64,000 nt of DNA from an uncultured Candidatus Saccharibacteria bacterium (GCA_964652615.1 CAZZAT010000001.1:359250-423249), one strand, 5' to 3'. Positions 34,864 to 38,721 are shown, counted from the stretch's first letter. Notes: generated by a model not told the origin, from the letters alone. Program-made: numbers and translations.

Positions 34864-37800
34864 ATGGCTCGTCGTCGCGGATTCGGAGGAGGTTCACCTG
34901 CAATGGAGGACAACATTGCGCCTTTTCCCGCACCCGCTCCTCAAGAAAGAGAAGCACAGGAAGCTATAACCAACGAGCAATTCCAAGCATTTATAGAACA
35001 ATCGAAAGAGCATCTCGATGTGCTTTTTAAAAAGAAAGGGTTCAATGCGTCTCTCGTTGAACTAGCGGCTCGTGCTGATCTTGATACAAAAGATAACGAA
35101 CATAATAAAGAAGCGCTTCTAAAGGCAATAGAACGAGCAAAGAAAACAGCTCCTGCAAAGGTTCGAGAAGCGCTAGAAGCCGCCGCTATCGCACAGGGAA
35201 TCTCCCTCGATACTCTTTTCCTTGAGATGGCACGCCGTCAAAACAGCCTCTCTCGTACGCTCAGTGAAGATCTGCCGCAGCGTCCAGAAGGTGGAATCGA
35301 TGGATTTGCACAATACCTTGACCGAGTTCTTGCTCGGCCAGATTCAGGATTTGGTACAGAAAATCCTTTCGCTGCTGGGCTTATGGCGCGGTTTCAGGAA
35401 ATCGCGACTCCTGCAAAAGTTCCATTGTATCCAAAAGGATCTCCCATCTCGTCTCAGTTTGAACGAGTAGGAGGACGTCTTGCAGGAGAAGCCACGCTCT
35501 CCTACATGGAACTTTCCATATTCTCAGTGACCATAACAAAGACGGCAGCTGCGTTCGGTGTTGCGCTGTCTGGACCAGCAGCGATTGCGCTTGCGGTGGT
35601 TGCGTGTACGACCATTATTTTCCCAGGGCGAAATGAACTCTTTAAATCAATTATTGAGACAGATGGGAATGTTGTTGCAGGATTGAAACGCTTCGTAAAG
35701 CGTAAGCCAAAATTTGCCGCAACAGCGCTGGCTCTTATAGGAGGTGTTGCGCTTGGTGGTGTAGGGTACAGCATCGATCGTTCTATAGAAGATGGAGCAA
35801 AATCAGGCGCAGCAGCAGAACAGCTCGGCCAAGCCGTTGAGGGAACGGGAGCTCCGGGCGAAAGCATCATCGAACGTATGCAAACGAGCGACACGATGCC
35901 GGCTCTCGTTCAGCGTCTTCCGCGCATCGTCGATGCGCTGCTTCGAGCCGAGCAGTTCCCGGACCAACGGGCACAGATACAAGAAGAATTCGGAGATGTT
36001 CTCTCGCCCGGAGGTACTGGGAATGAAGGGACTGGTCCTGTATATGCAGCGCGTTGCTACCTGTTCGGTAGACCAATTCCTCCAACGGCAGCGCTCAACC
36101 CTGAACACCGTCGTCTTATTGATCAAGCCCGTGCCGAGGCCGGATTCAATCAAGGAGAGACAATTGAAGCATTCGTAGGTCGTCAGTATCAAGACTACAT
36201 TCGAGATACTGCAGAAGCGAAAGCGCGCGCAACAGAATTGGCGCGACAAATTTCTGAAAATAGAGAAACACTTTCGGATCAAACATTCACTTCAATTTTT
36301 GTTGGCAGTGTTTTTCATTTTGAGGGTTCGATGAGTCAGGAAGAGGCACTTGCGCCACGGGCTGAGCTTGAACAACACTTGCGCACTATCGAGGCTCGAT
36401 ATAACGCGATGCGTCAAAATGTCGAGAATGCGAACCGGATTCTCTCGAGCGCGTCAGAGCAAATAGCGCCTGGTACAGGGTTAACGCTCCGACTACCACC
36501 TTTCACACTCAACGAAGTATTTGCACCGCTCTTCGGCGTAACCCCAAACGAGTCGCATCCAATCGCTGAGCAATGGGCGGAACAGATTGCTTCTGCAGCT
36601 GGCGGGGAGCCTGAACAGTACTATTCAGTTGCCCGCAATCTTATCCGTGGTACCTCAGGGCTCGCTGCGCTCATACTCGCGCTCGGCATGATTCCTCTTT
36701 TTTATACAGGAGCCTTACGTCGAAACCGCAAACTCAAAGAGCGAGAAGTGCATCATATCGCCGAAGCTCGCGAGGCAGAAAATGAATATGTCGACCAACT
36801 TGTTGAACAGTGCAATTTTATACGTCCATACATTCCAGGGAACCCTGAGGTAACACCGTTTCGTGCACGATTTGCATTGCGTCAACTGGTTATGAGCAAA
36901 TCTCCGGTTATTCTTGGCGAAGATGCTAATAGAATAACGAGATTTAAGCATTGGTTTGTTTCAAATTATCTTGAACGCGGGAAAGTAACAGATGATACTG
37001 AAGCACTCAAAGATTATGCAAAAGTGCTACGTGCGCTCCAAACCGACGCAAAATTGAGTGAAGAACTTCTTGAAACACTCTATCCAGGATTTACTGCACT
37101 TACTACGGCGCTTGGAAACGATCAGGCAGTCCTTCTAAAACTCAGTGCAGGCGGGAAAATGACTGCAGAGGAAGCAGGAAGGTTAAAACAAATGGCAGAA
37201 TCGCCATGGCAATTCGCTGACAAAGTGAATCGTGCTCAACTCGAATGCGCATACGCGACTGCTCAGGCTGAATTTCATACACTCGAGTCGGAGTATACAT
37301 GTCTCAGTCATATTCTTGAGGACGTAATGACCGGTGCGAATAAATATGAAATCTTCAACCCGTTTACAAACGAGGAAGATTTACACCTCGAGACACGGAA
37401 CATGGCAGAGGCCATTAATACATACGAATACCTCTATACGCAGGATGGACGTCGTCCACAGCTCTCCGAAGAACATCAGCGAGTCATGCGCCGTATCGCT
37501 GCAGAGACGCAAGCTGCAAAAGTGATCATGATGATAATGGCTGAGAATCGAAACAAAGTCGACAGTCTTAAAGAAGAAATCGGCAAGGTTGAACGAGCTT
37601 TTATCACTCGTCAGCTTAAGGATATTAATAAGGATGGGTTTAAATTTTCTATACCCAAATCGATGGTCGATGGCGATGACCCTGAGACGCGTGAGTTGCT
37701 CACTGCGAGCGCAGGCGCATTTCAAGATGTTGCGAAAGACGTAAAACTTCGACTTGGCGGCCTTACTGGCCTTGCAAATGAAGGACGAGGGGCCGACGAA

Positions 37801-38721
37801 TCTGTAGCGGAGATTATCGAAACACTTACTAACGCAAGGGGTGGAATCGACGATGCAAGCATCTTGCATGTCAAAGAACTCCTTGAAGAAATAAAACAGA
37901 AGGGTAAAGAGGAGAAAAACGAGAAAATTACTGTAGAAAAAGTATCAGTACAGGAACAATTAGATGCTATGGCGCAGCGACTTTTTGAGCCGAGAGTACT
38001 GCAGGCCCTGCTTGCTGATCTTAACTACGGCCGTCACCCTGATGAACAGTTAAATGTTGAACTGCAGCCGGTCTATGACATCAAGGGGCAACAGCTTCCA
38101 GCGAGCGACACGAGGATAGATATACCGGGCTGCATTTTGCGATTCCGTGTCCTTGATAGTGGGAATCGAGAAGTCGTAAGAAATGACTTCCAAATGAGTC
38201 ACGTCCTTCTGGAAGGGCGTAAGCCAAAATTTGCGGCAGATAAGTTCGGTATTTGGCTAAACGGAGCGATACGGAACGCAAAACTTGAATCGCGGAAGCA
38301 ATGGCTTGAACAATTTGTCTCCGGTGATGAGAATAAGAATAGGGAAGGAACGTTAATTCTCGATACGTTTGGGAACCAAGACAAGTCAAACGTATGGCTC
38401 GATACTTTCTACCACGCCACAGTACTCAAATGGCGACGTGCTGAGACCGCTCGTGCCCTTCAAGGCGCGACACGACCCATCAAACCGGAAGCACTTGATA
38501 TTTTCGATGAAAAGTATGATCGGGAAGGTATTTCATATGACGCTACTGCACGTCCTGAAACAATGCGGGAAATTATCGAACTTCATCATCGTCTTCCGTT
38601 ATGGAATCGTTCTCGGGTTTCTATAAATCTTGCAACACAGCAAGTTACTCGCTCAAACGGAAAACCAAAGGAACTTACAGTTGCTCAATACGTAGCGGAA
38701 CTTCGTAAAAAAACAGCTTAA
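34864..38721 (+). CDS. giant orphan membrane-associated protein (1285 aa)
   Basis: Uninterrupted ORF; predicted TM segments around aa 205-250, 278-300 and 595-620; mostly helical/charged; no recognisable catalytic motif. The 3' half (from about 36.7 kb) is markedly more AT-rich. Confidence 0.6.
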   Translation: MARRRGFGGGSPAMEDNIAPFPAPAPQEREAQEAITNEQFQAFIEQSKEHLDVLFKKKGFNASLVELAARADLDTKDNEHNKEALLKAIERAKKTAPAKVREALEAAAIAQGISLDTLFLEMARRQNSLSRTLSEDLPQRPEGGIDGFAQYLDRVLARPDSGFGTENPFAAGLMARFQEIATPAKVPLYPKGSPISSQFERVGGRLAGEATLSYMELSIFSVTITKTAAAFGVALSGPAAIALAVVACTTIIFPGRNELFKSIIETDGNVVAGLKRFVKRKPKFAATALALIGGVALGGVGYSIDRSIEDGAKSGAAAEQLGQAVEGTGAPGESIIERMQTSDTMPALVQRLPRIVDALLRAEQFPDQRAQIQEEFGDVLSPGGTGNEGTGPVYAARCYLFGRPIPPTAALNPEHRRLIDQARAEAGFNQGETIEAFVGRQYQDYIRDTAEAKARATELARQISENRETLSDQTFTSIFVGSVFHFEGSMSQEEALAPRAELEQHLRTIEARYNAMRQNVENANRILSSASEQIAPGTGLTLRLPPFTLNEVFAPLFGVTPNESHPIAEQWAEQIASAAGGEPEQYYSVARNLIRGTSGLAALILALGMIPLFYTGALRRNRKLKEREVHHIAEAREAENEYVDQLVEQCNFIRPYIPGNPEVTPFRARFALRQLVMSKSPVILGEDANRITRFKHWFVSNYLERGKVTDDTEALKDYAKVLRALQTDAKLSEELLETLYPGFTALTTALGNDQAVLLKLSAGGKMTAEEAGRLKQMAESPWQFADKVNRAQLECAYATAQAEFHTLESEYTCLSHILEDVMTGANKYEIFNPFTNEEDLHLETRNMAEAINTYEYLYTQDGRRPQLSEEHQRVMRRIAAETQAAKVIMMIMAENRNKVDSLKEEIGKVERAFITRQLKDINKDGFKFSIPKSMVDGDDPETRELLTASAGAFQDVAKDVKLRLGGLTGLANEGRGADESVAEIIETLTNARGGIDDASILHVKELLEEIKQKGKEEKNEKITVEKVSVQEQLDAMAQRLFEPRVLQALLADLNYGRHPDEQLNVELQPVYDIKGQQLPASDTRIDIPGCILRFRVLDSGNREVVRNDFQMSHVLLEGRKPKFAADKFGIWLNGAIRNAKLESRKQWLEQFVSGDENKNREGTLILDTFGNQDKSNVWLDTFYHATVLKWRRAETARALQGATRPIKPEALDIFDEKYDREGISYDATARPETMREIIELHHRLPLWNRSRVSINLATQQVTRSNGKPKELTVAQYVAELRKKTA

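Follow-up and report, generated by a model that had tools for sequence, protein, structure and literature searches.

The locus described here raises the question of what a single large gene of no recognisable family does in an ultra-small bacterium, and whether it was inherited or came from elsewhere. The window analysed is a stretch of 64,000 nucleotides from an uncultured Candidatus Saccharibacteria bacterium (GCA_964652615.1, CAZZAT010000001.1:359250-423249), and the gene in question is an open reading frame (ORF) on its plus strand (BIG, 34864-38721, product P0001), referred to below as the big gene. It begins with ATG and encodes 1285 residues, followed by a stop codon, without interruption. 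An earlier note on this DNA had regarded the product as an orphan membrane protein with an internal compositional break, and the gene as a possible acquired or host-interaction gene. The results presented below argue, with a probability of roughly 0.55, for a lineage-restricted, fast-evolving accessory envelope protein of Paceibacteria, which has been inherited in place and may act as a coupling module.

A single intact gene

Contigs assembled from runs SRR15237817 and SRR15237806 cover the big gene in stretches of 12.6 kb and 5.0 kb, over which their DNA is 100% identical to the window. All five full-length proteins of the family, the window protein included, span residue 620, that is, the junction at about 36.7 kb, in one frame. 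Two findings that would have changed the picture had been named in the earlier note, namely homology to a housekeeping family and a frameshift or a join of assemblies around 36.7 kb. Neither was encountered, the latter being absent from two independent assemblies and from the alignment of homologues. Since the assemblies are identical and four full-length homologues are collinear across 36.7 kb, a fusion or assembly join is ruled out. These results demonstrated that 34864-38721 is a real, intact and single gene.

The ATG at 34864 was taken as the start because the N-termini align across homologues, including the more distant protein of locus L007 described below. The Gly-rich basic N-terminus (M-x-x-G/R-x-G..G) is common to all homologues and aligns with the L007 protein too. 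An alternative start at M14 (34903), after a GGAGGAGG, was considered and rejected; Shine-Dalgarno sequences are generally missing in this genome (11 other window genes were checked and lacked them), and the Gly-rich stretch upstream of M14 is conserved in the homologues.

A very small family

An exhaustive HMMER search with residues 86-1285 as query against 1.84 billion cluster representatives returned nine proteins: the query, four full-length homologues, a fragment of 183 aa and three parts of a single gene from an assembly with frameshifts. The full-length homologues (P0002-P0005, 1349-1463 aa) are collinear with the window protein and 27-31% identical to it over their full length, or 30-35% over the matched stretches. 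The fragment (P0006) is 59% identical and lies in the C-terminal part. Only the query itself was returned by a word-indexed homologue search, with the single sequence as well as with a profile, and scans of genome, metagenome and viral contigs with patterns from the family alignment yielded no further relatives. An alignment of the five full-length proteins covers them from end to end and contains about 120 invariant positions, which occur in every region. The family is very small and unnamed and was found in a subclade of Patescibacteria.

Proteins P0002-P0005, which come from metagenomes and MAGs (metagenome-assembled genomes; e.g. GCA_964348655.1), are unnamed or annotated as 'hypothetical protein'. 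They have the same transmembrane (TM) layout, motifs and genomic slot as the window protein, but differ from it in their longer N-termini and in missing a K/E-rich insert at aa 974-1025. Being uncharacterised, they are uninformative on function. In locus L006 (GCA_037975565.1, JBBCBH010006809.1), many genes are split into two or three ORFs, including those for a glycosyltransferase, Bac_transf and the big protein, which indicates frameshift errors in the assembly and not pseudogenes.

A more distant candidate was found in locus L007, on contig CAZTMV010000012.1 of a MAG, whose SecF is 71% identical to that of the window. There, a 1513-aa ORF (P0010) occupies the same slot and has the same TM layout. 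P0010 and a further protein, P0011, resemble the window protein in slot (SecF, kinase-like ORF, big gene, AA_kinase), in size, in TM layout and in their Gly-rich N-terminus, and bear motifs in the same order, namely a GGTGxxGxGP..LF.G loop, LPGF and the C-terminal motifs. Only the Gly-rich signature of the window protein matches L007-type proteins with E<=0.001, and in both it lies equally far behind the third TM helix (hhalign loop-loop E=7e-4), and the LPGF motif within aa 661-973 is collinear with these proteins as well. Over the full length, hhalign gave E=0.0048, and BLASTP gave three collinear segments. Semi-global alignment of this pair was degenerate, and global alignment with window shuffles was used in its place; the scores reached a z of up to 5.1 over local-composition shuffles, compared with 0.4-1.5 for reversed-sequence controls. 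L007 is probably a very divergent orthologue, although this is unproven.

Genomic slot, rate of change and distribution

In all readable loci the gene order was the same, with (RodA/FtsW, GT4, Bac_transf), epimerase, FolD, SecD, SecF, zero to four small variable ORFs, the big gene and a convergent AA_kinase gene. The slot and the orientation were conserved in all five other genomes with a recognisable homologue. The convergent gene of the window (38718-39404, minus strand) encodes a UMP-kinase-like member of the amino-acid-kinase family (PF00696, E=1.3e-22) and overlaps the stop of the big ORF by 4 nt. It forms the conserved right border of the slot and stands at the same position in all homologous loci.

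The proteins of this block were compared between the window and three carrier genomes, using the same genome pairs for every gene. Identities were 73-76% for SecD, 67-74% for SecF, 52-61% for FolD and 50-58% for AA_kinase. At 32-35%, the big gene is the fastest-evolving of the syntenic block, with about twice the rate of its neighbours.

The distribution was assessed in 80 species-representative loci fetched with a SecF profile. Neither a homologue nor a remnant of the big gene was found in these related secF loci beyond the known carriers, whether with a hidden Markov model (HMM) or with tblastn. In most loci whose SecF is 55-72% identical to that of the window, SecF is followed at a distance of 0.02-2 kb by AA_kinase, usually with an ORF of about 185 aa between them, and there is no large gene. 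The nearest SecF relatives belong to MAGs labelled Paceibacterota, Kaiserbacteria or Parcubacteria. In a neighbour-joining tree of SecF the carriers cluster, but one non-carrier stands among them and one carrier is placed elsewhere. This topology agrees with a single origin followed by losses, although a tree of one protein is weak evidence. The big gene is inherited in place and is a lineage-specific accessory gene, its accessory status following from its absence from the same slot in most of the related genomes examined.

The secF-AA_kinase interval (34188-38718 in the window; L003-L007) is a hotspot of variable content among the relatives, where AAA_18 kinase-like genes, NUDIX, DUF1653 and small ORFs of no known family occur with or without the big gene. 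Searches of phages and plasmids by tblastn and a scan of viral contigs gave no matches. The big gene is neither flanked by long repeats nor adjoined by a tRNA gene. No mobile-element genes were recognised among the adjacent genes checked, and the flanking genes with a Pfam match are housekeeping genes.

Membrane topology and domain structure

Hydrophobic segments were located with the Kyte-Doolittle scale (19-aa window, threshold >1.5). Four were found (aa 217-235, 235-253, 284-304 and 600-618), in agreement with the three or four TM segments that the earlier note had counted. AlphaFold2 models built from alignments of five to six sequences are mostly helical and of moderate confidence, with a mean predicted local distance difference test score (pLDDT) of 64.7 and 61.5 and a predicted template-modelling score (pTM) of 0.43 and 0.44. 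No signal peptide was found, the N-terminus being charged, Gly-rich and without a hydrophobic core, and profile self-comparison detected no internal repeats.

The loop before the third segment contains eight Lys/Arg residues and the stretch after the fourth contains five, while the flanks on the opposite side are acidic, giving a positive-inside pattern. Because of this Lys/Arg distribution and the acidic flanks, aa 305-599 (about 295 aa, 23% of the protein) are predicted to lie outside, and the N-terminus of 216 aa and the C-terminus of 666 aa, about 880 aa together, are predicted to be cytoplasmic.

The predicted cytoplasmic N-terminus opens with a variable charged region (aa 1-129, 34864-35250) of 21% pairwise identity, in which pLDDT is below 50 over aa 1-57. 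It is followed by a conserved pre-membrane segment (aa 130-215, 35251-35508; 34% pairwise identity) with the motifs PTTxEG, DPLAA and YPKGS..Q.E.TG, where P138, P168, P190, S193, E200, G203 and E209 are invariant. In the TM cluster that comes next (aa 216-305), the first two hydrophobic segments form the TM1-TM2 hairpin (aa 217-253, 35512-35622), with Kyte-Doolittle peaks of 1.57 and 2.08 and modelled helices at aa 204-230 and 237-265. A basic loop, predicted to be cytoplasmic (aa 254-283, 35623-35712), holds the eight Lys/Arg residues mentioned above, five of which fall within the 15 aa preceding TM3 (aa 284-304, 35713-35775; Kyte-Doolittle 1.69). The modelled helix of TM3 (aa 282-327) runs on into the next domain.

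Between TM3 and TM4 lies the predicted extracytoplasmic domain (aa 305-599, 35776-36660), which is all-helical, has acidic flanks and reaches a pLDDT of 70-89 over aa ~340-540. Pairwise identity over aa 306-599 is 34%, with 32 invariant residues. Its best-conserved motif is the Gly-rich signature (F)GESGxxGxGPxYxAKxxLFxG (aa 381-402, 36004-36069), where G383, G386, G389, G391, P392, Y394, L400 and G402 are invariant.

TM4 (aa 600-618, 36661-36717; Kyte-Doolittle 2.07), with five Lys/Arg in the 15 aa that follow it, passes almost directly into a conserved charged juxtamembrane segment (aa 619-660, 36718-36843; RRGRRxRE...H..EAR.AEEE.ID..N), modelled as a long helix. Residues 620-760 are the best-conserved stretch of the protein, with 41% pairwise identity and 24 invariant residues. 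The predicted cytoplasmic helical domain or domains (aa 661-973, 36844-37782) bear the motifs R.R.ALRE, DTEAL, TL(F/Y)PG(F/Y) and MAEN, and pairwise identity over aa 761-973 is 35%. The K/E-rich insertion (aa 974-1025, 37783-37938) occurs in the window protein only, the other four sequences having 87% gaps there, and its pLDDT is below 50. The protein ends with a predicted alpha/beta domain (aa 1026-1285, 37939-38718; 33% identity, 31 invariant residues) containing an invariant DFQM (aa 1108-1111). In the model these C-terminal ~260 residues combine helices with a sheet of three strands, and pLDDT is 74-87 in most blocks of 10 residues. Variability is not higher in the ectodomain, at 34% pairwise identity, than in the cytoplasmic parts, which range from 33 to 41%.

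Comparison with known families

The window protein had no significant match in Pfam, NCBIfam, PHROGs or PADLOC, and for the other family members there were scattered single-member matches only, at E>=0.009. Sequence and profile searches of the PDB were likewise negative. The absence of recognisable enzymatic motifs, as stated in the earlier note, is thus borne out, and so is its description of a near-orphan polytopic membrane protein encoded by one uninterrupted ORF. Foldseek found nothing at E<=0.001 with both AlphaFold2 models against the PDB or with the C-terminal model against BFVD. Its best matches (E 0.085-0.4) were generic helical bundles, including spectrin repeats, ClyA, the trypanosome haptoglobin-haemoglobin receptor, a model of a methyl-accepting chemotaxis protein (MCP) and tape-measure proteins. 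None of these four collections has an entry for the family, no PDB sequence matches it significantly, and models of this quality reveal no recognisable fold. Nothing was found in the literature under the accessions of the runs and the assembly, and an mBio 2025 paper on Paceibacteria deals with other genomes, of 43-44% GC.

Several known systems share part of the architecture. In 4HB-type receptors (methyl-accepting chemotaxis proteins and sensor kinases), as in the model of the big protein, an all-helical ectodomain lies between two TM helices, and these helices continue into the ectodomain and a long helix follows in the cytoplasm. MCP-type structures were among the non-significant Foldseek matches (E>=0.25). 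Unlike these receptors, the big protein has an extra TM hairpin, a cytoplasmic N-terminus of 216 aa and a cytoplasmic domain without a recognised fold, and no signalling module (HAMP, MCPsignal, HisKA, HATPase or GGDEF) was detected with Pfam or NCBIfam in any of five members.

Scaffolds of the EzrA/spectrin-repeat type also combine a membrane anchor with long helices in the cytoplasm that extend over several hundred residues. The top Foldseek match of the C-terminal model was a spectrin-repeat structure, although not a significant one (E=0.36, TM-score 0.10). Such scaffolds have one N-terminal TM helix, whereas the big protein has four TM segments and an ectodomain, and lacks internal repeats.

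The giant adhesin-like proteins of episymbiotic organisms of the candidate phyla radiation (CPR) and DPANN are, like the big protein, large, lineage-specific, fast-evolving and envelope-associated. Unlike them, the big protein lacks a signal peptide, repeat modules and any adhesin domain that could be recognised, and only about 23% of it is predicted to be extracellular; tandem adhesin-type repeats (Ig, cadherin, beta-helix) were detected neither with Pfam nor by profile self-comparison. With an ectodomain of no extra variability besides, the suggestion of a giant surface protein for attachment was not upheld, and a role as surface adhesin is unlikely.

Likeness to phage tape-measure or tail proteins was not supported, since the best PHROGs match had E=0.1, the tape-measure matches in BFVD had E 0.15-1.1 and the neighbours matched in Pfam are housekeeping genes. 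The anti-phage defence models of PADLOC, which include the Zorya ZorA-like long-tailed membrane proteins, gave no match for the window protein; the single-member matches in PADLOC at E 0.009-0.03 (Csn2, E1-E2) are to unrelated proteins.

Proposed role and alternative explanations

Taken together, these features suggest, with the probability given at the outset, that the big gene encodes a lineage-restricted accessory envelope protein that couples the two sides of the membrane. As Patescibacteria genomes are tiny, an accessory gene of 3.9 kb must be worth its cost if it is still intact in lineages whose copies are only about 30% identical.

How the protein might work is proposed more tentatively from the predicted architecture, as a module for outside-in signalling or for anchoring. 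In such a mechanism the partly disordered N-terminus of ~216 aa would remain in the cytoplasm, followed by the TM1-TM2 hairpin and TM3. The helical ectodomain of ~295 aa, with its invariant Gly-rich loop, would make contact on the outside, for instance with a component of the envelope, with a ligand or with a partner cell. TM3, TM4 and the charged juxtamembrane helix would rigidly link the ectodomain to a large cytoplasmic platform of ~665 aa, consisting of helical domains and the terminal alpha/beta domain with the invariant DFQM. A signalling or anchoring role would fit this arrangement, and an enzyme, transporter or adhesin appears less likely, no signature of any of the three having been found in the family, PDB and fold searches.

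Several points weigh against this view of the protein. Its function is read from the architecture, and neither homology nor a fold match nor a conserved operon partner speaks for signalling or anchoring. The topology depends on hydropathy and the positive-inside rule, and the hydrophobicity of TM1-TM3 is no more than moderate in the homologues, which makes the number of TM segments uncertain. The link to L007-type proteins is weak, as HMMER does not detect it, the hhalign probability is 7-26% and the piecewise E-values (C1-C1 and C2-C2) are no better than background. Finally, the fast evolution and patchy presence would fit a role in conflict with phages or hosts equally well.

This last possibility deserves attention as a reading with a minor share of the probability, though one comparable to that of the coupling mechanism. 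The big gene would then be a conflict or interaction gene, whose product might serve phages as a receptor or exclude them, act as a defence effector anchored in the membrane or make contact with a host or partner cell, with the ectodomain as interaction surface. Such a gene could well be the fastest-evolving of its block, be present patchily among close relatives and occupy a slot that holds different small genes in different genomes, all of which is observed here. The membrane-embedded product with ~295 exposed residues, and a third-position GC content (GC3) that is somewhat low, like that of other variable loci in the window, also agree with it. Conversely, no similarity to PADLOC or PHROG entries, phages or plasmids was found, the product bears no nuclease, ATPase, protease or adhesin modules, and about three quarters of it are predicted to be intracellular. 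Nor does the ectodomain vary more than the cytoplasmic domains do. If the ectodomain does mediate contact with a host, partner or phage, it would offer a handle on the interactions of Paceibacteria with other cells, which are still largely unknown.

A bolder version of the coupling proposal would make the family a new receptor or tether class of ultra-small bacteria, in which a novel helical ectodomain with its invariant Gly-rich loop is mechanically coupled to a novel cytoplasmic alpha/beta (DFQM) domain, senses or holds a partner cell or phage and passes the contact on to the inside. The family would then evolve quickly because of that interaction. We regard this version as rather improbable. 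As it stands, the case is a well-delimited and fairly ordinary piece of CPR protein 'dark matter', which merits cataloguing and modelling but opens no long-standing question by itself.

The position of the gene raises a further alternative, namely a scaffold associated with the cell envelope or the Sec machinery, which would organise envelope growth, division or export together with SecDF, RodA and Mur proteins. The big gene is indeed always found just downstream of secDF, tightly so in L004, where the gap is 34 nt, and in L005, where two small ORFs intervene with short gaps. Its neighbourhood includes FtsK, RodA/FtsW, glycosyltransferases, MurC/MurD-like ligases and an M15 peptidase, and the cytoplasmic region contains long helices. 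In the window, however, a strong hairpin and an ORF on the opposite strand separate the big gene from the secDF unit. Moreover, most close relatives keep secDF and the block but not the big gene, whereas a core scaffold should be indispensable, and relatedness alone can explain synteny across the whole block. The Foldseek matches to spectrin-repeat and BAR-domain structures were not significant (E 0.36-2.6). Such a scaffold is thus an unlikely explanation, and the accessory coupling protein remains the preferred one.

The compositional break near 36.7 kb

The earlier note had reported that the gene turns distinctly AT-rich from about 36.7 kb. The change is real, total GC falling from 0.509 over aa 1-620 to 0.455 over aa 621-1285, but it is modest, as the 3' half lies ~1.1 standard deviations (SD) under the mean of the window genes (0.493 +/- 0.034). 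Similarly, the GC3 of the whole gene (0.388) lies ~1.2 SD under the mean of 40 window genes (0.464 +/- 0.066).

When the codon positions were taken separately, GC at positions 1+2 (GC12) was 0.567 up to codon 638 (nt 36778) and 0.488 beyond it, a change point with p=0.0035 under codon permutation. For GC3, a change-point scan within the big gene gave no significant break (p=0.16), and a split at codon 620 gave 0.390 versus 0.386 (chi-square p=0.93). The first part of the protein, with the membrane segments and the predicted ectodomain, is richer in Ala, Gly and Pro (14.4%, 8.5% and 5.8%, against 9.3%, 5.3% and 3.3% in the second), and the second, predicted cytoplasmic part is richer in Lys, Asp, Asn and Glu. 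The break coincides in position with TM4, and the GC12 difference has the same direction in the homologues. Because codon positions 1+2 shift and GC3 does not, the drop is an effect of amino-acid content, and it marks the boundary of two domains of differing composition and not a foreign origin. A methodological lesson is that an intragenic GC break should be split by codon position before a foreign origin is invoked.

That the gene is foreign and of recent arrival, or that two genes or two assemblies were joined near 36.7 kb, is consequently very improbable: the fall of 5.4 points in total GC, and the GC3 of 0.33-0.39 in the big gene and two flanking genes against ~0.49 in the upstream genes, are outweighed by the equal GC3 of both halves, the same N>C gradient of GC12 in the homologues, the single frame across both halves in all of them, the identical independent assemblies, the synteny kept in five other genomes and the absence of flanking repeats, an adjacent tRNA, recognised mobile-element genes and phage or plasmid hits, so that the proposal of an acquired gene was abandoned.

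Within the gene, a 22-nt sequence occurs twice on the plus strand, at 35700-35721 and 38217-38238. The second copy is identical to the first at 21 of 22 positions, and both are in frame and encode RKPKFAA. By our own estimate, such pairs are expected by chance at about 1e-4 in 6 kb. Because the homologues differ at both sites, the pair suggests a lineage-specific micro-conversion or template-switch event.

Flanking ORFs and expression signals

Both small flanking ORFs mentioned in the earlier note exist, although one lies on the strand opposite to the big gene. The first (34192-34587, plus strand) starts 4 nt past the secF stop, has a GC of 0.407 and potentially encodes 131 aa without a family match. 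ORFs of 115-137 aa occupy the corresponding place in L003, L006 and a JGI contig. No similarity among these small ORFs was detected by phmmer, but they have a few collinear residues in common (D-E/R-Q, then A-L-R-x-L near the C-terminus). The small ORFs after secF may be another fast-evolving set of orthologues.

The second is a hydrophobic ORF of 33 aa on the minus strand (34642-34743), with AGGAG 6 nt upstream. Its reality is uncertain; it is not conserved in relatives, and an unrelated ORF of 86 aa is found at this place in L003. Between the two ORFs, a G+C-rich hairpin of 9 bp (34619-34640; 8/9 pairs G-C), terminator-like on both strands, parts the unit of secDF and the 131-aa ORF from the big gene. 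The only sigma-70-like promoter match upstream of the big ORF is at 34753-34780 on the plus strand (CTAACA-16-TATACT) and agrees weakly with the consensus. In L004 and L003, too, a TATACT precedes the start, by 11-19 nt.

Other features of the window

The rRNA genes of the window are unlinked and out of the usual order (20330-25300 and 40176-43221), with 23S and 5S followed by 15 kb of protein genes that include the big ORF. The 23S rRNA gene (20330-23554) is ~300 nt longer than the Rfam model, with ~270 nt extra between 21300 and 22400. A tRNA-like element lies in this insertion (21761-21840), identified by ARAGORN as tRNA-Leu CAA and by the Rfam tRNA model with 48.9 bits (gathering score 29); such an element is unusual within a 23S insertion. 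The downstream part comprises a short 16S gene (1382 nt, covering model positions 1-1533), an ORF for a LAGLIDADG homing endonuclease (41746-42288, E=4.9e-23) and a tRNA-Ile gene. Together with the nearest SecF relatives, the short 16S gene, the insertion in the 23S gene and the unlinked rRNA genes identify the window as part of a CPR/Patescibacteria genome.

Further downstream, the ORF at 51094-52770 has weak but consistent matches to coupling proteins of type IV secretion systems (TrwB_AAD_bind, TraG-D_C and T4SS-DNA_transf; E 1e-7 to 3e-5), and no other genes of such a system were recognised nearby. It is followed by a cluster for polysaccharide biosynthesis (52652-63916), encoding an epimerase, four GT4 glycosyltransferases, two methyltransferases, an asparagine-synthase-like protein, a fusion of GT2 and deacetylase and a flippase-like protein. 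From ~55.9 kb on, GC3 is 0.36-0.40, against 0.42-0.58 for most upstream genes. This low GC3 of the cluster is typical of a variable surface-glycan locus.

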